From assembly GCA_965649115.1 (NCBI GenBank), contig CBFGJN010000058.1:1-11961 (forward strand): a stretch of 11,961 nucleotides of DNA, in the 5' to 3' direction. The notes beneath the pieces are model-generated. The model saw only the letters and a program-made list of their open reading frames with translations, was not told the origin of the DNA and ran no database searches. This stretch comes from a candidate division WOR-3 bacterium (GTDB taxonomy: Bacteria > Hydrothermota > Hydrothermia > LBFQ01 > DSFT01). The position numbers and the translations under genes were made by a program. Of this stretch, positions 1 to 11,961 are shown in pieces; positions within the stretch are counted from its first letter, which is position 1; each line of letters begins with the position of its first letter.

Positions 1-143
1 CCACCCTAATAATAAGCCTTCGGCTTATAAATGCCCATTTTTCGGTCTAGGGGGGCTTTGTCCCCCATAAAATTTTTAATTTCCTTAAAATTTTTGTAAG
101 TTATTGATAATCAAGGACTTAACACTATTTACTAGACAAAGCA
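1..143 (+). mobile_element. MITE-like element copy A (left end outside window)
   Basis: Hairpin ATAAGCC-TTC-GGCTTAT 12-28; GGGGGGC-TTT-GTCCCCC 50-66; double IHF-like site 97-121; right TIR TTACTAGACAAAGCA ending 143. Confidence 0.85.
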
Positions 144-159
144 ATTTAAAATTGTCGTG

Positions 160-341
160 TGCTGTGTCTAGTAATTTTGAAAAAAATATATATTTTATTA
201 TATTTTTCCCTCTCACCCTGAAAATAAGGCTTCGCCTTAAAAACTTTGCCCCTAAAATCTCCCCATTAAATCAATAGTTTCATTAAAGATTTTACAAGTC
301 ATTGATAATCAATTACTTAACATTATTTACTGGACAAAGCA
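160..341 (+). mobile_element. MITE-like element copy B (182 bp)
   Basis: Left TIR TGCTGTGTCTAGTAA at 160; right TIR TTACTGGACAAAGCA ending 341; hairpin TAAGGC-TTC-GCCTTA 225-239; IHF-like pair 295-319. Confidence 0.88.
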
Positions 342-350
342 ATGGTTTAT

Positions 351-512
351 TGGTGTGTATAGTAATTCTGAAAATAATTATTTTTCTTTATTTGCTCACC
401 TGCTCTAAAATCAAGCCTTCGTCTTATAAATACTCCATCTTTTGCTATGGGGGAATTTGTATCTAATAATTTTTCCCTCCATAAAATCCCCCCAATTTAC
501 TAGACCAAAGCA
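351..512 (+). mobile_element. MITE-like element copy C (short, degenerate, no IHF module)
   Basis: Left TIR variant TGGTGTGTATAGTAA 9 nt after copy B; right TIR TTACTAGACCAAAGCA; flanks ATGGTTTAT / ATTGTTTAA (7/9 identical). Confidence 0.8.
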
Positions 513-1765: not shown

Positions 1766-1825
1766 CTTTAAAATTTAATAACTATTATATTTTTCCTTAC
1801 TTACTTTGAATTTAGGGCGGATAAT

Positions 1826-4572: not shown

Positions 4573-4693
4573 TCCTTTGTCAGAATAGTTGCTTGATTTA
4601 ATGTGGGGATTTTATTGGGGGATTAAAAGCATAAAAATGGGCATTTATAAGCCAAAGGCTTATATTTAGGGTGGGTGGAAAAAAGACAAAGCA
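4573..4693 (-). mobile_element. MITE-like element copy G (short, inverted), between convergent genes
   Basis: Minus strand begins TGCTTTGTC...CCACCCACCCTAAATATAAGCC-TTT-GGCTTATAAATGCCCAT; degenerate far TIR TCCTTTGTCAGAATA at 4573. Confidence 0.8.
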
Positions 4694-4713
4694 ATAATTT
4701 TAAATTTTTTTTC

Positions 4714-5630: not shown

Positions 5631-6705
5631 ATATTTTTATTATATCTTTTGTTATACTCGTTAAATTTACAACTTCATTTTTCTCCTTATCAAGATAAAC
5701 AGTGTCCTCTATTCTTATTCCAAATTCGCTTTCAATATAAACACCAGGTTCAATTGTAAAAACTTCATTTCCTTTTAATATCCATTCATCTGCTTTTTGA
5801 CTAAAAGCAGGTAATTCATGAACATCAATTCCAATAGAATGACCAAGTGCATGACCAAAATAATTATCATCATAACCAAAGGACTTTAAATAATCCCTTG
5901 CTATTGAATCAACCTCTTTATTTTTTATTCCAATTTTTGTTTTTTCTTCTACTAAATCTACTGCTTTTTTAACAATTTCATAAACTTTTAAAAATTCTTC
6001 ATTTATACTTGAACCTATCCAAATCGTTCTTGTAATATCACAACAATATCCATCATAAACTAAACCAAAATCTATTAGAAGTGGTTTATTATTTAAAATT
6101 TTTTGATTTGATGGTCTTCCATGTGGCATAGCACTTCTATGAGATGTTAAAACAATTGTTTCAAATGCCATTTTCTCAACATTATATTTCTTTTTTGCTA
6201 TATATTCCATCTCTATTGCTAAATCTCTTTCAGTCATTTTTTCAGGTTCTATAATGTTTAAAATTTCTTCAAAGATATTTTTAGCAATATCACAAGCCTT
6301 CTTAATTTTATTAATTTCTTCATAGCTCTTAATAGCTCTTAAATTCTCAATTATATTGTTAGTGGGAATAAATTCAATATCCCTAAATTTTTCTTTAAAA
6401 CTATTAAGTGTGCTTATTGTAAAATATTTTCCTTCAATAGCTAATTTTTTTATTGGTTTTAAAAGTTCTTCCATGGTTTTGAAATAATCATTATAAATAA
6501 TAATTTCATATTTGGTTTTGTCAATTTTTTCATTAGCGTAAATTTTATACCTAAAATCAGTAATAAAATAATTTTTCTCTTTGGTTATTAAAATTTGGGC
6601 AAATGAACCAGAAAAGCTTGAAAGGTACTTTATATTTGATAAATTTGTAATAAAAAGCCCATCTAAATTATTTTCAGTTAAATAATTACGAAGGTAAGAT
6701 AGCAT
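5629..6705 (-). CDS. Xaa-Pro aminopeptidase/dipeptidase, M24B family
   Basis: Creatinase-like N-terminal domain (TDFRY); metal-ligand motifs IDFG, CDITRT, HALGHSIGIDVHE, TIEPG, RIED. Confidence 0.94.
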   Translation of the reverse strand: MLSYLRNYLTENNLDGLFITNLSNIKYLSSFSGSFAQILITKEKNYFITDFRYKIYANEKIDKTKYEIIIYNDYFKTMEELLKPIKKLAIEGKYFTISTLNSFKEKFRDIEFIPTNNIIENLRAIKSYEEINKIKKACDIAKNIFEEILNIIEPEKMTERDLAIEMEYIAKKKYNVEKMAFETIVLTSHRSAMPHGRPSNQKILNNKPLLIDFGLVYDGYCCDITRTIWIGSSINEEFLKVYEIVKKAVDLVEEKTKIGIKNKEVDSIARDYLKSFGYDDNYFGHALGHSIGIDVHELPAFSQKADEWILKGNEVFTIEPGVYIESEFGIRIEDTVYLDKEKNEVVNLTSITKDIIKI

Positions 6706-7033
6706 TTATCTTCGGTAAAACAATTTCAGGCTTTAATCTTGGATCTTTTTTCCATTCTTCTCTCAAAATTTTTAAAACATTTAAACGAACTTCAATTGGA
6801 TAATTGCTAATAATTGGTTCAATATGTTTTTTCCACAATTCAACACCTCTTTTATATGCCCAACCTCTTATGTTCGTTGGATGTTTTATTAAGAATGTTT
6901 TAGCAATTTCAAGAGCTTTTTCAGTTTCACCTGCTAGCAGAAGTTCAGCAATTTTAGATTCTACTTTATAACTTTTCTTTTTTAACTTTAATTTTTGTTG
7001 TTTTTTAATTTGATACTGCTTCCATCTGCTCAT
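6686..7033 (-). CDS. Hypothetical basic protein
   Basis: 115 aa; ATG start with an upstream -10-like box; overlaps the peptidase start by 20 nt; no recognised family. Confidence 0.7.
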   Translation of the reverse strand: MSRWKQYQIKKQQKLKLKKKSYKVESKIAELLLAGETEKALEIAKTFLIKHPTNIRGWAYKRGVELWKKHIEPIISNYPIEVRLNVLKILREEWKKDPRLKPEIVLPKINAILPS

Positions 7034-7041
7034 ATCCGAAA

Positions 7042-7047
7042 ATTTTA
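7042..7047 (-). promoter_or_regulatory. Putative -10 box (TAAAAT), 8 nt before ATG 7033
   Basis: Minus strand CTT-TAAAAT-TTTCGGAT-ATG. Confidence 0.55.
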
Positions 7048-7069
7048 AAGCATAACTATTTAATCAAAT

Positions 7070-7273
7070 TGCTGTGTCTAGTAATTCTGAAATATAGATT
7101 ATTTCTATATTTTCCCACCCACCCTGAAAATAAGGCTTCGCCTTTAAAGTACCCATATTTCGGCTATGGGGGGCTTTGCCCCCCATTAAAACCCCCCTTT
7201 AATAAATAATTCCAATAAAATCTTTATAAGTTATTGATAATCAATAACCTAACACTATTTACTGGACAAAGCA
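7070..7273 (+). mobile_element. MITE-like element copy H (full length, 204 bp) with perfect 9-bp flanking direct repeats
   Basis: TIRs TGCTGTGTCTAGTAA / TTACTGGACAAAGCA; TAATCAAAT at 7061-7069 and 7274-7282; hairpins 7132-7144 and 7166-7186; IHF-like pair 7227-7251. Confidence 0.92.
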
Positions 7274-7282
7274 TAATCAAAT

Positions 7283-7426
7283 TGCTGTGTCCAGAAATTC
7301 TAAAAATATAATTATTTCTATATTTCCCTCACCTACCCTAAATTCAAGCCTTTTGCTTTAAAATGCCAATTTTTCGGCTGCGGGGGCTCCGTCCCCCTAT
7401 AATTCTCCCATTAATTGAACAAAGCA
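7283..7426 (+). mobile_element. MITE-like element copy I (short, 144 bp) with the same 9-bp repeats
   Basis: TIRs TGCTGTGTCCAGAAA / TAATTGAACAAAGCA; TAATCAAAT at 7274-7282 and 7427-7435; lacks the IHF module. Confidence 0.88.
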
Positions 7427-7481
7427 TAATCAAATTTTTCGGTGTTGGAAGCTTTAATTTCAGACCCACTCCCACCTGACT

Positions 7482-8168
7482 TTAAAAATTATAAATTTTT
7501 AATGCCAAATTTTTAAAAAATTCTATAACTTCATTTATTTCAATAGGTTTTATCATATTTAGAGGGATAAAATTTAATTTTTCTAAAATTTCAATTCTTT
7601 CCTCTATTTCAAATGCAACGCTTGGAGGGTCATCAAATAATTTTTCCTTCCTTCTTGAAAGTTCATAAATTTCATCAAAGTTAAAATTGAAGTTTTTAAA
7701 AATAAAATAAAAATCAATCAAATCTCTAATTTCAAATCTTGAAACAATAGCACAAAGTTTATTGCTTGCTATATTTTCAAGACAATCAACTTTTAGTGTT
7801 CTATCATTCTCAAATTTAAAAACCTTCCTTTCACAATCTATTGAAAGTCTATCTATTACAAAATCAACTTTTATACCAAGAATTTCATAAGATAAATAAA
7901 ATTCTGATATTGATTTTATGCTTACATTATAAGAAAATTTGAACTTTATCCAAAAACTTAAATCATTTAAATTAACATCTGAAATTGTAAAAAAATCTAA
8001 ATCTTCTGAAATTCTATGTCCTAAATAAAAAACTGAAAGAGCGGTTCCTCCAGTTAGAAAAAATTCATTTTTTATAGTTTCATTTTCAAGTAAACTTATT
8101 AACAAATTTCTTTGACTATCTGATTTGTAAGCACTTTTTATTTCTTTAACTGGATAATTCTTTTCCAT
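7482..8168 (-). CDS. AbiEii/AbiGii-family nucleotidyltransferase toxin (type IV TA-like)
   Basis: FFLTGGTAL...HRISEDLDFF signature; downstream NKL...R...RDLID motif. Confidence 0.9.
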   Translation of the reverse strand: MEKNYPVKEIKSAYKSDSQRNLLISLLENETIKNEFFLTGGTALSVFYLGHRISEDLDFFTISDVNLNDLSFWIKFKFSYNVSIKSISEFYLSYEILGIKVDFVIDRLSIDCERKVFKFENDRTLKVDCLENIASNKLCAIVSRFEIRDLIDFYFIFKNFNFNFDEIYELSRRKEKLFDDPPSVAFEIEERIEILEKLNFIPLNMIKPIEINEVIEFFKNLALKIYNF

Positions 8169-8389
8169 TTTTTTCTAGCCTTTGGAGATATTTTAACTTT
8201 ATCAATAAATTCTTCAATTTCAGAAATTGTAAAAATTTTTAAAGTATCAGCAACACTTGCCCTTTCAAGAAATCTTGATAAAATCCATAGATATACTTTT
8301 TCATTATTTCTATTATTATTCAAGAATTTAATTAAATTTTGCTCATCTTGAAAATCACTATAATCCCAAAATACATTTTTCAAATTCAT
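8138..8389 (-). CDS. Small putative antitoxin partner of the AbiEii gene (DUF6922-like)
   Basis: 83 aa; FWDY...ILSRFLER pattern; directly upstream of the toxin ORF and overlapping it by 31 nt. Confidence 0.7.
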   Translation of the reverse strand: MNLKNVFWDYSDFQDEQNLIKFLNNNRNNEKVYLWILSRFLERASVADTLKIFTISEIEEFIDKVKISPKARKKWKRIIQLKK

Positions 8390-8395
8390 ATTAAA

Positions 8396-8401
8396 ATTTT
8401 A
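8396..8401 (-). promoter_or_regulatory. Putative -10 box (TAAAAT), 6 nt before ATG 8389
   Basis: Minus strand CCTT-TAAAAT-TTTAAT-ATG; no SD. Confidence 0.55.
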
Positions 8402-8423
8402 AAGGATAAAAATTGATTTGTTG

Positions 8424-8627
8424 TGCTGTGTCTAAGAATTCTGAAATTATTTATTTTTCTTATTTTGCCCACCCGCCCTGAAATAAAGGCTTCGCCTTTA
8501 AAATGCCCATTTTTAGGCTTTGGGGGGCTTTGCCCCCCATTAGATCCCCCATAAAATCAATAGTTTTATTGAAATTTTCGTAAGTCATTGATAATCAAGC
8601 ATTTAGCAATAATTACTGGACAAAGCA
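8424..8627 (+). mobile_element. MITE-like element copy J (full length, 204 bp)
   Basis: TIRs TGCTGTGTCTAAGAA / TTACTGGACAAAGCA; hairpins 8484-8500 and 8521-8539; IHF-like pair 8581-8605. Confidence 0.92.
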
Positions 8628-8636
8628 GATAAAAAT

Positions 8637-8750
8637 TGCTTTGTCTAGTAATTCTGAAATAATTTATTTTTCTATGTTTTGCCCAACCGCCCTATGAATA
8701 AGCCTTCGGCTTATAAATACCCATATTTGTGCCTTGGGGGGCTTTGCCCT
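8637..8750 (+). mobile_element. MITE-like element copy K (right part missing, abuts alaS stop)
   Basis: Left TIR TGCTTTGTCTAGTAA 9 nt after J; hairpin ATAAGCC-TTC-GGCTTAT 8698-8714; ends within GGGGGGCTTTGCCC. Confidence 0.85.
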
Positions 8751-8753
8751 AAT

Positions 8754-11255
8754 TTAAATAAATAACTTTTTTATTTTATCTTCTAAGTTTTCTAAAATTT
8801 CTAAATTATCCGTTCCTCCTTCTGCTTTAATGTCAGAGCCACCTCCCTTCCCCAAAATTTTTATCATTAGATTATTAGCATTAAATTTATCTTTTAGAAG
8901 TTTCCCAATTCTAAAATGTGCTATAACTTTATCTTCTAATTTTGAAAAAAGAAAAATAAGTAAATCATCTTTTTGTAGGTAATCTGCCAATTTTCTTAAA
9001 AATTCCATATCAGCACCCTTTAAAACTTCAAAATAATATCTATATCCATTAGTTTCTTTTGAACTTATCGTTTTTGAATAAATGCTAATGTACCTATCAA
9101 GTAATTCATTATACTTAACCTGCATATTTTTATTTTCAAGAATAGTCTTTTCTAATTTTTCAGGAATGTCTTTAATATCTGATTTTAATAAAACTGATAC
9201 CTTTTTGAGAATTTCCTCGTTTTCTTTAATGTATTCAAAAGCTCTAATACCAACATAAGCATTTATTCTTCTAATTCCACTACTAACAGCCTCTTCCTTT
9301 ATAATTTTAAAAAATCCAATTTCCCCTGTTCTCCTAACATGTGTTCCTCCACATAATTCTTTACTAAAATCTCCAATACTAACAACCCTAACAATATCTC
9401 CATATTTTTCTTCAAAAATAGCAATTGCTCCTTCATTTATAGCACTTAAATAGTTTTTATATTCCCAAATAACTTCCAAATTTTCTCTAATTTTTTCATT
9501 AACAAGTTTTTCTATTTCATTAATTTCCTTATCACTTAAAGGTTTTGGATGTGAAAAGTCAAATCTCAATCTGTCATTCTCAACTAAGGAACCTTGTTGA
9601 AGTGCATGTTCTCCAATAATTCTATGTAATGAAGAATGTAATAAATGTGTTGCTGTGTGAGCTCTCATATTTGCTTTTCTTAAATTTACATCAACTTTTG
9701 CCAAAACTTCTAAATTATTTAACTTTATATTGTTTTTCAATTTTCCAAATAAAACAATATCTGAGCCTATTTTTTTAGTATCAAAAATTTCAATTTCATC
9801 ATTTTCTAAAACTAAAATTCCCTTATCTCCAACTTGACCCCCACCTTCGGGATAAAAAGGAGTTTCAAATAAAACAATGTAAATTTTATCATTTTCAATT
9901 TTATATTTAGCAATTTTTGTTTTATATTCCATAAAATCATAGCCTACAAATTTCGTTGATTTATAGTTACCGTCAATATAATCCCAATTTTCAATGAGCA
10001 TTATATTCCTTTTCTCCTTAGTCAGTCTTTTCCTTTCATCTAATAATCTATCATAACCTTCCAAATCAAGTTTTAAATTTTTATCTTTTGCATATTCTTC
10101 AATTAAATCCAAAGGTATTCCATAAGTATCGTAAAGCTTAAATATATCTTCACCTTTTATTATATCATTTGAATTTTGGACAATTTCAATTAGATAAACG
10201 ATGTTCTTTCCAATTGTTTGAATGTACTTTTCTTCTTCGTTTTTGATAATTTCTTTAATTGTTTTTAAGTTTTTTGAAATTTCAGGATAAGCATTTTTCA
10301 TAATTTCATAAACTACATCAACAAGTTTATATAAAATTGGTTCATTAACATTTAATTTCTGAGCAAATTTATAAGCCCTTCTTAAAATTCTTCTTAAAAC
10401 ATAACCTCTTGAATAATTACTTGGATAAATTCCATCAGAAATTGCAAATACTAATGCTCTAATATGATCTGCTATAACCCTATGGGGAACTCCCGTTTTT
10501 TCATCATATTTAACACCTGTTAAATTTTCTATTTCTTTAATAATTGGCATAAACAATGAAGTATGATAATTATTATTAACACCTTCAATAACTGATAATA
10601 ATCTTTCTAACCCCATTCCTGTATCTACATTCTTTTTTGGAAGTGGTTCTAAACTTCCATCACTCTTTCTATTGAATTCCATAAAAACGATATTCCACAA
10701 TTCAAGCATTTCATCACCTAAATCATAATGAATCTCTGTTGAAGGTCCACAAGGACCAACATCACCCATTTCCCAAAAATTATCTTTTTCATCAAATTTA
10801 AAAATTCTTTTTTCATCAATTCCAACTTCATCTTTCCAAATATAATATGCTTCATCATCTTTATAATAAACACTAACATATAACTTTTCTTTTGGAATTT
10901 TAAAAACATTTGTTAATAATTCCCAAGCCCATAAAATTGCCTCCCTTTTAAAATAATCTCCAAATGAGAAATTACCAAGCATTTCAAAGAATGTATGATG
11001 TCTTCTTGTAAATCCAACATTATCTAAGTCATTATGTTTTCCTCCCGCTCTTAAGCATTTTTGACAAGTAGTTATTCTTTTTGATGGTGGTTCTGCTTCA
11101 CCTAAAAAATATATTTTAAATTGATTCATACCTGCATTTGTAAAAAGAAGTGTATTATCTCCTCTTGGAAGTAATGAACTTGAAGGATAAATTAGATGAC
11201 CTTTTTCTTTAAAAAATTCCAAAAATGTTCTTCTTAATTCATCAGCTTTTTTCAT
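8754..11255 (-). CDS. alaS: Alanine--tRNA ligase
   Basis: LLFTNAGMNQFK, HHTFFEMLGNFSFGDYFK, DTGMGLER, TPFYPEGGGQVGD, editing motifs HTATH and ELCGGTH, C-terminal GKGGG. Confidence 0.99.
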   Translation of the reverse strand: MKKADELRRTFLEFFKEKGHLIYPSSSLLPRGDNTLLFTNAGMNQFKIYFLGEAEPPSKRITTCQKCLRAGGKHNDLDNVGFTRRHHTFFEMLGNFSFGDYFKREAILWAWELLTNVFKIPKEKLYVSVYYKDDEAYYIWKDEVGIDEKRIFKFDEKDNFWEMGDVGPCGPSTEIHYDLGDEMLELWNIVFMEFNRKSDGSLEPLPKKNVDTGMGLERLLSVIEGVNNNYHTSLFMPIIKEIENLTGVKYDEKTGVPHRVIADHIRALVFAISDGIYPSNYSRGYVLRRILRRAYKFAQKLNVNEPILYKLVDVVYEIMKNAYPEISKNLKTIKEIIKNEEEKYIQTIGKNIVYLIEIVQNSNDIIKGEDIFKLYDTYGIPLDLIEEYAKDKNLKLDLEGYDRLLDERKRLTKEKRNIMLIENWDYIDGNYKSTKFVGYDFMEYKTKIAKYKIENDKIYIVLFETPFYPEGGGQVGDKGILVLENDEIEIFDTKKIGSDIVLFGKLKNNIKLNNLEVLAKVDVNLRKANMRAHTATHLLHSSLHRIIGEHALQQGSLVENDRLRFDFSHPKPLSDKEINEIEKLVNEKIRENLEVIWEYKNYLSAINEGAIAIFEEKYGDIVRVVSIGDFSKELCGGTHVRRTGEIGFFKIIKEEAVSSGIRRINAYVGIRAFEYIKENEEILKKVSVLLKSDIKDIPEKLEKTILENKNMQVKYNELLDRYISIYSKTISSKETNGYRYYFEVLKGADMEFLRKLADYLQKDDLLIFLFSKLEDKVIAHFRIGKLLKDKFNANNLMIKILGKGGGSDIKAEGGTDNLEILENLEDKIKKLFI

Positions 11256-11264
11256 AGTTTGAAA

Positions 11265-11270
11265 ATTTTA
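11265..11270 (-). promoter_or_regulatory. Putative -10 box (TAAAAT), 9 nt before alaS ATG
   Basis: Minus strand TTT-TAAAAT-TTTCAAACT-ATG; no SD. Confidence 0.55.
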
Positions 11271-11292
11271 AAATATAAATTTAAATTTACTA

Positions 11293-11438
11293 TGCTGTGT
11301 TTAGTAATTCTGAAAGTCCTTATTTTATTATAATTTCTCCACCCACCCTGAATATAAGCCTTTGGCTTATAAATACCCATTTTTCGGCTGTGGAGGACTT
11401 CGCCCCCCATAAGTCACCCATTATTTTTGGACAAAGCA
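11293..11438 (+). mobile_element. MITE-like element copy L (short, 146 bp)
   Basis: TIRs TGCTGTGTTTAGTAA / TTTTTGGACAAAGCA; hairpin TATAAGCC-TTT-GGCTTATA 11353-11371; no IHF module. Confidence 0.87.
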
Positions 11439-11440
11439 AA

Positions 11441-11510
11441 GTTTTATTATATTTTTCCCACCTACTCTAAATACAAGTCTTCGGCTTAAAAACTTCATCC
11501 CCCATCAAAC
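11441..11510 (+). mobile_element. MITE-like element fragment M (no TIRs, ends approximate)
   Basis: TTTTATTATATTTTTCCCACCTACTCTAAA and AAGTC-TTC-GGCTT 11475-11487 are colinear with the consensus. Confidence 0.7.
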
Positions 11511-11542
11511 CTCCGAAAAAACCCTTAACAAAATCTCTTATT

Positions 11543-11961
11543 TCAGTGTAAAATTATCCTTGAAAGGAAGTATAACAAGATGCTTGAAATAATAGTTATT
11601 GAAAGTCCTAAAATCATTCTTTCAATTCTTTCAGTTCTCTTTTCAAGCCTGTTAATATCGTCCTTTGTGGCAAAATTCTTTTGCGCTTCTTTTAGTTCTC
11701 TAATGTCATCTTTTGTAGCAAAGTTTTCTTGACTTGCTTCAATTTTCTCAATCCTCTCTTCAAGTCTCTTAATATCATCCTTTGTGGCAAAATTCTTTTG
11801 CGCTTCTTTTAGTTCTCTAATGTCATCTTTTGTGGCAAAGTTTTCTTGACTTGCTTCAATTTTCTCAATCCTCTCTTCAAGTCTCTTAATATCATCCTTT
11901 GTGGCAAAATTCTTTTGCGCTTCTTTTAGTTCTCTAATGTCATCTTTTGTGGCAAAGTTTT
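11543..11961 (-). CDS. Partial (5' end outside window) membrane-anchored coiled-coil protein with ATKDD repeats, DUF1640/CCDC90-like architecture
   Basis: Manual translation: ...(NFATKDDIRELKEAQK-NFATKDDIKRLEERIEKIEASQE)x2-NFATKDDIRELKEAQK-NFATKDDINRLEKRTERIERMILGLSITIISSILLYFLSRIILH*, with TGA at 11545-11543. Not in the ORF track. Confidence 0.85.
   Translation of the reverse strand, partial: NFATKDDIRELKEAQKNFATKDDIKRLEERIEKIEASQENFATKDDIRELKEAQKNFATKDDIKRLEERIEKIEASQENFATKDDIRELKEAQKNFATKDDINRLEKRTERIERMILGLSITIISSILLYFLSRIILH
11652..11961. repeat. 117-bp coding tandem repeat (~2.6 units visible), made of 48+69 bp subunits
   Basis: TTAATATC(A/G)TCCTTTGTGGC recurs at 11652, 11769 and 11886; units are near-identical. 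Confidence 0.93.

Follow-up and report, generated by a model that had tools for sequence, protein, structure and literature searches.

Integration of an IS5-family element and its 204-nt MITE derivative is probably guided by host promoters

An IS5-family IS and its 204-nt MITE derivative probably choose their targets by the host promoter. The initial annotation had left two alternatives for a constant distance between the left TIR of a repeat and a TAAAAT box, namely integration positioned relative to promoters, or co-option of the TIR as a promoter or activator site. The first is upheld by a peak at 21–22 nt, strict orientation and target duplications lying between TIR and box, and likewise by repeated hits to the same 9-mer, orthologous boxes that are free of the element, and an IS with the same spacing; the second finds no support. 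The features of the window (the whole stretch of 11,961 nt that was analysed; coordinates count from its first letter) are as follows.

1–494 (+): MITE array truncated at the beginning of the contig (units 1–143, 160–341 and 351–494)
1329–1339 (−): putative promoter box CTTTAAACTTT of gene 530–1321
1356–1774: MITE array adjoining the 1329–1339 box; three truncated units, left TIR and spacer lost
4592–4706 (−): isolated MITE fragment (model 15–138) between two convergent genes, not beside a promoter
7040–7050 (−): putative host promoter box CTTTAAAATTT (TAAAAT at 7047–7042) serving the 115-aa gene 6686–7033; ATG 8 nt past TAAAAT
7061–7069 (+): first copy of the 9-bp target, TAATCAAAT; further copies at 7274–7282 and 7427–7435
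7070–7273 (+): full-length MITE unit (model 1–204), left TIR 22 nt from ATTTTA
7283–7426 (+): second stack unit, an internally deleted MITE (model 1–140 plus a right-TIR remnant)
8394–8404 (−): putative host promoter box CTTTAAAATTT serving the 83-aa gene 8138–8389; ATG 6 nt past TAAAAT
8424–8627 (+): full-length MITE unit with its left TIR at a distance of 22 nt from ATTTTA; the 9-mer in its flank, GATTTGTTG, differs from the spacer, GATAAAAAT
8637–8769 (+): second MITE unit, 3′-truncated (model 1–144), extending to the alaS stop codon (8754–8756)
11263–11273 (−): putative host promoter box TTTTAAAATTT of alaS (8754–11255); ATG 9 nt past TAAAAT
11293–11438 (+): MITE unit with an internal deletion; its left TIR lies 22 nt from ATTTTA, and a 5′-truncated unit comes next at 11438–11521

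The ATTTTA motifs have their 3′ edges at 7047, 8401 and 11270, and the left TIRs (TGCTGTGT...) begin at 7070, 8424 and 11293; the 22-nt gap first noticed at these three loci is exact at each of them. The pattern ATTTTA-N22-TGCTGTGT matched three times in the window against 0.00 expected, and none of 200 shuffles gave a match. Four of the seven left TIRs in the window (160, 351, 7283 and 8637) are array-internal, and all three array-initial left ends follow the 22-nt rule. Two caveats raised at the outset stand: the unit at the 1329–1339 box, the locus near 1336, has lost its left TIR, and the box near 1769 (1766–1776, +), which has no left TIR at that distance, faces the distal end of an array.

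Genome-wide, the distribution of distances that the initial annotation had proposed as a check has a sharp peak at 21–22 nt. A regular-expression search of 283 array-initial left TIRs returned gaps of 22 nt in 113, 21 in 37, 23 in 4 and 14 in 25; in an nhmmer map with 297 arrays that retain an intact left end, 170 lie 21–23 nt from TAAAAT (125 at 22, 40 at 21 and 5 at 23, with 2 arrays at 20) and 57 lie at 13–16 nt. The earlier suggestion that the box, rather than the start codon, sets the spacing is borne out by 143 loci, at 107 of which the gap to the box is 22 nt while the TIR-to-start distance is spread across 34–39. Orientation is strict, one end of the element always facing the promoter; the right end has no preferred distance to the box, with at most 4 box matches at any one distance among 142 arrays. 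Counted against promoter targeting are 51 of the 297 arrays with an intact left end, for which there is no box within 45–60 nt, and a second, minor register at 13–16 nt, 8 nt closer to the box. Perfect 9-bp duplications are present in both registers (42/89 and 14/29), and whether TIR position 5 is G or T does not account for gaps of 21 versus 22 or 14. The same spacing recurs in kin of this genome, which are not independent samples: 5 of 10 initial ends in a sister species lie at 22, and a scripted count on metagenome contigs placed 17 of 38 ends at 22, 5 at 21 and 9 at 13–16. Locus L115 among these contigs was scripted as 7 via a second box-like match, and by eye has its proper box at 22.

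The repeat is an apparently non-coding MITE of 204 nt; its ends are of the IS903 type and its target duplications 9 bp long. The genome contains 738 copies or fragments of it, 226 of them full-length, in 99.7 kb or 5.4% of the sequence. It has the traits of a MITE, being short, multi-copy and TIR-bounded with 9-bp duplications, and has 18–27 terminal nt in common with the IS described below. Of 214 full units, 94 have a perfect duplication and 15 more have one that matches at 8 of 9 positions; in a control 12 nt further out, no unit among the 214 reached a match of at least 7/9. There is no consensus within the 9-mer target. Spacers between stacked units measure 9 nt at 70 of 77 junctions, and in 28 of 57 arrays the first spacer is identical to the 9-mer on the promoter side. 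The full-length share falls with growing distance from the promoter (0.57, 0.30, 0.08), and neighbouring units are not more alike than random pairs (0.730 versus 0.725, p=0.72). The stacks thus arise by independent insertions into one 9-bp target. No terminator-like sites were predicted inside the MITE units, and a known RNA family was ruled out, the sole Rfam match in the window at E≤1 being a weak chance match to ALIL (17.4 bits, cut-off 50).

ATTTTA (complement TAAAAT) is the core of a general box, CTTTAAAATTT, in the host genome, and judging from its position and conservation, TAAAAT would be the −10-like core of a promoter used generally by the host. In the genome TTTAAAATTT is found 1154 times against 144 expected, 371 times with the start codon of an ORF of at least 80 aa placed 6–11 nt past TAAAAT. 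A box is also found at 32 of 45 tRNA genes, its end 6–20 nt before the mature 5′ end, and for most of these genes TAAAAT lies 6–16 nt before it. The host lineage appears to use leaderless genes; a literature search on the lineage name together with leaderless genes returned nothing specific. Among 681 leaderless-type promoters, 328 have an element at most 90 nt upstream and 341 have no mapped copy there. Upstream of the box, these 341 copy-free promoters show no information content and no conserved −35 region; an ORF-based test of their upstream space cannot be relied on, as ORF cover is inflated by in-frame ATGs lying upstream. In a sigma-70-type promoter, a −10 hexamer resembling TATAAT precedes the start site by about 7 nt, and a −35 hexamer, TTGACA, lies 16–18 nt further upstream. 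The host box promoters lack this −35 hexamer, as the initial annotation had correctly remarked, and the three window boxes are absent from the best 60 of 93 two-hexamer promoter matches.

The box also exists without the element. At the alaS and 115-aa-gene promoters, seven of eight relative loci have the box and lack the element, including three of the four relatives at alaS, where the script did not locate the start in the fourth relative, which is the eighth locus. The promoter therefore precedes the element. Among relatives (G001–G004), a search with the flanks and a 19.5-kb stretch yielded no clean filled/empty pair in which both flanks were conserved.

These observations bear directly on the view that the left TIR was co-opted as a promoter element, whether as an activator site or in place of a −35 or UP element, with its distance kept by selection. 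In favour of co-option, the tip of the TIR is at about −35, a position without a TTGACA-like hexamer, TAGACA is present within the TIR, and occupied promoters have better boxes (exact CTTTAAAATTT in 70%, versus 38% of free promoters); we nevertheless regard it as quite improbable. The 341 promoters without a mapped copy do without any conserved upstream element, and the element is absent from orthologous promoters in relatives, alaS among them, for which co-option had been specifically suggested. Promoter-proximal left TIRs have a conservation of 0.877 versus 0.890 for internal left TIRs and 0.890 for right TIRs, in the main class TAGACA would be separated from the −10 box by 27 nt, and the duplicated 9-mer and its reuse go beyond what selection can explain.

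Selection may also be invoked in another way, with untargeted insertion into AT-rich DNA, as for MITEAba12, followed by purifying selection that spares the copies just clearing the promoter core. Harm is to be expected from insertions nearer the box or within the genes of a compact genome, and IS903-type relatives favour AT-rich targets without positional specificity in the available part of PMC6382973. Such sparing is difficult to reconcile with a peak that is sharp on both sides, with non-coding positions further upstream that stay unused, with an orientation that is strict when the right end is flat, or with unrelated copies found repeatedly in the same 9-mer, and we consider it very improbable. 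That the box is part of the element, a mobile promoter carried at its end, would fit the box-like motif inside the IS and MITE near the other end, but is in effect refuted by the duplication, which falls within the 22-nt TIR–box interval and so puts the box outside the element; moreover, these 22 nt are not conserved, and the same box stands before orthologous genes without the element and at the 341 copy-free promoters here.

Promoter-guided integration is also consistent with the spacing of an autonomous element. Locus L072 carries a 1040-nt element encoding a 295-aa transposase with matches to NF033579 (227.6 bits, cut-off 140), PF01609 (99.5 bits) and PF13737 (69.7 bits), as in IS5-family DDE transposases; the traits of the IS903 group are found as well, with IS903-like ends, a length of about 1 kb and a 9-bp duplication, the last seen in the MITE units. 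The equivalent end of this IS lies 22 nt from a box beside a start codon. Judging from the ends, this IS5-family (IS903-type) IS is the parent of the 204-nt MITE. It is the one full-length autonomous copy found, and its flanking 9-mers, TTTCTAATT and TATTTTCAG, do not match, so there is no target duplication at that site. The NF033579 alignment spans model positions 1–287 of 289, leaving no room in the 295-aa protein for an extra targeting domain. The internal box-like motif appears, in the IS, to be the transposase gene's own promoter.

In this genome, searching with the L072 transposase as a protein query recovered N-terminal fragments only, at two contig ends, and the PF01609, PF13737 and PF13359 profiles had no match in the assembly. 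TIR pairs 600–3000 nt apart, considered as a parent IS, are nearly all host genes flanked by two MITEs, and no multi-copy interior common to TIR-only ends was found in this genome. A PF01609 match in five relatives proved to be one unrelated GC-rich element, and a related-locus search in genome contigs gave nothing useful as a transposase lead. A further candidate IS with a perfect 9-bp duplication (C11) is a MITE interrupted by a two-gene cassette; the 242-aa protein of the cassette has no similarity to the window ORF 530–1321.

Taken together, a model for promoter-guided integration emerges. The 9-bp target of the transpososome would have its promoter-proximal edge 13 nt upstream of TAAAAT and occupy about −34 to −26, the usual place of a −35 box; insertion would therefore leave the element tip 22 nt, sometimes 21 nt, from the box. 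The promoter-facing end would always be the end downstream of the transposase gene (IRR, the “left TIR”). The targeting cue would sit on the promoter side of the 9-bp target, so that later copies would re-hit the same 9-mer and push older copies outward, building stacks of head-to-tail units separated by 9 nt. The host probably tolerates insertion, because nothing is conserved upstream of about −20 and the genes appear to be leaderless, and the site is probably a safe harbour. The cue could well be the box DNA itself, read directly or through its A4T4 bend; RNA polymerase or sigma bound at the box is a more tentative candidate, and we think it unlikely that another factor intervenes. A broader scheme, which we regard as doubtful, has the IS5 transposase, free of extra domains, homing via the RNA polymerase holoenzyme or sigma on −35-less promoters. 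Because insertion lands at −35, the MITE would on this scheme have replaced the upstream DNA of at least half of the transcription units, with promoter architecture and the reshuffling of gene order as consequences; were it true, it would explain why these promoters need nothing 5′ of about −20 and why nearly every array lies at a synteny break.

Bacterial promoter homing is known in print only for one transposase superfamily, the prokaryotic Mutator-like DDE transposases of TnGBS ICEs, ISLre2 and ISKra4, which, in the available part of PMC3942029, home to promoters and avoid genes, landing 15–17 bp upstream of the −35 box. Promoter homing at a set distance is common to both systems, and the distance and the reference point differ: the element described here would land at the −35 position itself, gauged from a −10-like box in −35-less promoters. 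Unlike those elements, it has an IS5 transposase of an unrelated superfamily, outside p-MULT 3 and 4 with their signature motif between N1 and N2, and its MITE, present at about half of all promoters, has a second register. The element thus works like the promoter-homing Mutator-like group without being a member of it. On IS5-family promoter homing, the literature matches listed included nothing relevant beyond PMC3942029 and PMC6382973.

Like IS903 and IS903B (IS5 family, IS903 group), the element makes a 9-bp duplication and is of similar length (about 1.04 kb, versus 1057 bp for IS903); its ends match the IS903B end GGCTTTGTTGAATAAATC at 12–14 of 18 positions, and its transposase is 28.8% identical to that of IS903 over 89% of the length. 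We know of no promoter homing by IS903. The loose palindromic target that IS903 prefers according to the available part of PMC2577343, WTTYA-N9-TRAAW, differs from what is found here, where the WTTYA and TRAAW arms are not visible around the insertions. MITEAba12, a 113-bp derivative of ISAba12 with 90 copies across 31 Acinetobacter genomes, resembles the present MITE in having only the TIRs in common with its IS5-family parent, in its 9-bp duplications and in its AT-rich targets. The part of PMC6382973 available reports no positional or orientation rule for it, whereas here 738 pieces in one genome are placed with nucleotide precision.

If the targeting proposed here is correct, a second, unrelated family homes to promoters, and the safe-harbour strategy has evolved more than once; the scale is that of hundreds of natural events, at one-base precision, in one small genome. 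How a DDE transposase gauges its distance from a promoter could then be studied in a simple system made up of the 295-aa transposase, the 11-nt box and the 9-bp target. The insertions would also map the promoters of an uncultured lineage, and the element would account for the instability of intergenic DNA and of gene order in this genus. In the comparison with relatives, each array examined falls at a synteny break or rearrangement.

The window is the entire contig C58 (11,961 nt), from an assembly of 1.85 Mb in 99 contigs with 27.6% G+C and an estimated completeness of 94.5%. At three of its loci, an ATTTTA box, which is TAAAAT when read in the direction of the neighboring gene, is followed at a fixed distance by the left TIR of a repeat (TGCTGTGT...), the end that faces the promoter (plus-strand reading):

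ATTTTA box ending at 7047; left TIR starting at 7070
ATTTTA box ending at 8401; left TIR starting at 8424
ATTTTA box ending at 11270; left TIR starting at 11293

The 22-nt gap described in the initial annotation is borne out by these coordinates and by a pattern count, with three matches to ATTTTA-N22-TGCTGTGT in the window against 0.00 expected from 200 shuffles. Four of the seven left TIRs in the window are array-internal; the three array-initial ends all obey the rule.

The repeat is an IS903-type MITE of the IS5 family. Searching the genome with an nhmmer profile made from two units of the window returned 738 matches, 226 of them full-length (204 nt), which together account for 99.7 kb (5.4% of the genome). 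On either side of full units stands a 9-bp direct duplication that is perfect in 94 of 214 cases and identical at 8/9 positions in a further 15; control positions 12 nt farther out gave no unit (0/214) with at least 7/9 identity. The MITE ends match those of IS903B (GGCTTTGTTGAATAAATC, taken from an annotated plasmid record) at 12–14 of 18 positions. An Rfam search of the window found no family for the repeat.

Genome-wide, the distance distribution of array-initial left TIRs is peaked at 21–22 nt rather than flat: among the 297 arrays whose left end is intact, the gap to TAAAAT is 22 in 125, 21 in 40, 23 in five and 20 in two, while 51 have no nearby box, a regular-expression count of left TIRs agreeing with the distance map. 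As had been proposed, the spacing is fixed relative to the box rather than to the start codon; of 143 loci, 107 have a gap of 22, whereas the TIR-to-start-codon distance is scattered over 34–39. The right MITE end shows no distance peak relative to the box (142 arrays). A second class of 57 arrays has gaps of 13–16 nt (31 at 14), a register 8 nt nearer the box (e.g., C10:13593 and C61:4217); a TIR variant does not account for it. Perfect 9-bp duplications occur at an equal rate in the main (42/89) and nearer (14/29) registers, and the latter is therefore a true insertion site, not the product of later deletion. The 9-mer targets have no consensus of their own, and the IS903 target arms WTTYA/TRAAW, as tabulated in PMC2577343, were not seen around them.

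What, then, is the box? Read in the sense of the gene next to it, the motif is CTTTAAAATTT. TTTAAAATTT occurs 1154 times in the genome against 144 expected from base composition, and 371 of these have the start codon of an ORF of at least 80 aa 6–11 nt past TAAAAT; tolerating one mismatch raises this to 681 boxes. Boxes also precede 32 of 45 tRNA genes, ending 6–20 nt ahead of the mature 5′ end, which a translation signal could not explain; box-less tRNA genes include downstream members of tRNA clusters. In same-genus genomes, the box is conserved at the orthologous starts of alaS and of the 115-aa gene (window 6686–7033). On frequency, start-codon position, tRNA genes and this conservation, we infer that the box is the −10 region of the lineage's general promoter, and that mRNAs would be mostly leaderless. 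The lack of a TTGACA-like hexamer at −35 noted initially holds more widely: for the 341 promoters that have no mapped copy in the 90 nt ahead of them, the sequence upstream of the box carries no information content, and thus no −35 element; in a two-hexamer promoter scan, none of the three window boxes was among the 60 best matches. Some divergent genes have back-to-back boxes just 6–27 nt apart (C83 3390–3445, and 1460–1500 of locus L036 in the sister species G002), such that each has the other's promoter or gene as its upstream region, consistent with promoters that require nothing upstream of about −20. The exact 11-mer box is found at 70% of occupied promoters versus 38% of free ones. TIR remnants occur at 33 "free" promoters, in 13 cases at 22 nt (versus one in shuffles), which makes the occupancy of 328/681 a lower bound.

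Comparison with four same-genus relatives indicates that the promoter comes first and the element second. In G002 and G004, alaS carries an identical box, shares the sequence downstream of it and lacks an element upstream; the G001 upstream region likewise has a box and no element, its alaS start being placed approximately by script, and in G003 the script did not locate the alaS start. At the 115-aa gene, all four relatives (4/4) have the box without the element. The MITE is present in G002 and G003 and was not found in G001, G004 or 36 other genomes of the class. No clean filled/empty site pair was found, every compared array lying at a synteny break. Array-initial ends in G002 (n = 10; five at gap 22, one at 23, two at 15–16) and in metagenomes (38 distinct; 17 at 22 by script, five at 21, nine at 13–16, five box-less) come from kin and are not independent samples. 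Locus L115, outside the 17, was scored at gap 7 through a second box-like match, and its proper box lies at 22 by eye.

The matches cluster into 510 arrays, 344 of one unit and 166 of two to five. Intact neighbors are separated by 9 nt at 70 of 77 junctions, and in 28 of 57 arrays the first spacer is identical to the promoter-side 9-mer; the window example, TAATCAAAT, is present in three copies. The full-length fraction falls from 57% nearest the promoter to 30% and 8% at the second and third positions. Neighboring full units resemble each other no more than randomly paired ones do (similarity 0.730 versus 0.725, p = 0.72, 35 pairs), so that stacks represent separate insertions rather than tandem duplication. 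The second copy re-uses the 9-mer even though the resident element now fills the upstream side, placing the cue on the promoter side.

Two readings had been offered initially: integration positioned by the promoter, and co-option of the TIR as a promoter or activator site. The latter is not supported: conservation is 0.877 for promoter-proximal left TIRs, 0.890 for internal left TIRs and 0.890 and 0.868 for right TIRs, all above the core (0.79 and 0.74), and transposase binding predicts such a pattern. Selection alone cannot set the spacing, for it gives no two-sided sharp peak, no strict orientation and no re-use of a single 9-mer. That the box is part of the element is excluded, because the 9-bp duplication sits between TIR and box.

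Positioning by the promoter extends to the parent element. The assembly holds no full transposase gene; metagenome locus L072 carries a 1040-nt element with the same MITE-like ends and a 295-aa transposase (NF033579, 227.6 bits, cut-off 140; also PF01609 and PF13737). A gap of 22 nt separates its left-TIR equivalent from a box, and a start codon comes 7 nt past the box; the transposase gene reads toward that promoter, making the promoter-side end IRR. The transposase gene is itself preceded by a box, TTTTAAAATTT, after which come GGG and then ATG. The other end adjoins an older MITE across a 9-nt spacer, and the element's two flanking 9-mers differ. Spanning positions 1–287 of 289 of NF033579, the protein leaves no room for an added domain. 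As a query, it recovered two N-terminal fragments (54–59% identity) at the ends of contigs C93 and C50, one of which lies in a stack, 9 nt from the end of a MITE; the parent is therefore present in this genome but unassembled. A 1079-nt IS5-like element with nearly identical ends (TGCTGTGTCTAATAATTC ... GGACACAGCA) lies on metagenome contig L047 (37% G+C), from an unrelated, less AT-rich host; its transposase is 27% identical and split over two ORFs, and no box-like motif was seen alongside.

TnGBS, ISLre2 and ISKra4, which have Mutator-like transposases, are described as inserting in one orientation 15–17 bp upstream of sigma-A promoters, their IRr adjoining the promoter (PMC3942029). Among described pairs of a MITE and its parent, the nearest is MITEAba12/ISAba12, for which the accessible part of its report gives no positional rule (PMC6382973). 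Our literature search found no report of promoter homing within the IS5 family.

Between this genome and G002 (DNA identity about 87–90%), nearly every compared MITE-bearing intergenic region is a synteny breakpoint (L003, L016, L030, L032, L036; L165), and some breaks resemble inversions; the pattern suggests that recombination between MITE copies reshuffles transcription units. Between two MITE arrays of the window lies a two-gene cassette (7482–8389, minus strand) encoding an AbiEii nucleotidyltransferase toxin (PF08843, 60 bits) and an upstream 83-aa ORF. In G002 another gene, divergently oriented, neighbors the 115-aa gene that lies downstream of the cassette here, and the cassette may thus have come by recombination at the arrays. 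At C11:31200–32950 (L001), a MITE is interrupted by a 1.0-kb insert that holds a further MITE and two genes (65 and 242 aa) with a box of their own; the whole lies between the two copies of a perfect 9-bp duplication, TATATCTTT, and looks like a composite that moved as a single unit.

The sole plus-strand box in the window (1766–1776), ahead of the gene at 1826–2647, lies inside a truncated MITE unit (model 26–134) and matches a MITE-internal stretch by eye, and may represent a promoter that derives from the MITE. After it comes a leader of 44 nt carrying an SD-like AGGGCGG, unlike the leaderless norm. G002 shares this arrangement. Three tandem 117-nt repeats (11621–11961, 92% identical) lie inside an ORF (11543–11959) that runs off the contig end and has a weak DUF2730 match; the equivalent place in G002, upstream of alaS, holds a coiled-coil gene. 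At 8754–8769, the profile alignment of a truncated MITE unit overlaps the last codons and stop of alaS (8754–11255, minus strand). AlaS is 833 aa long in the window versus open frames of 837–857 aa in the four relatives, and its C-terminus may have been shaped by the element.
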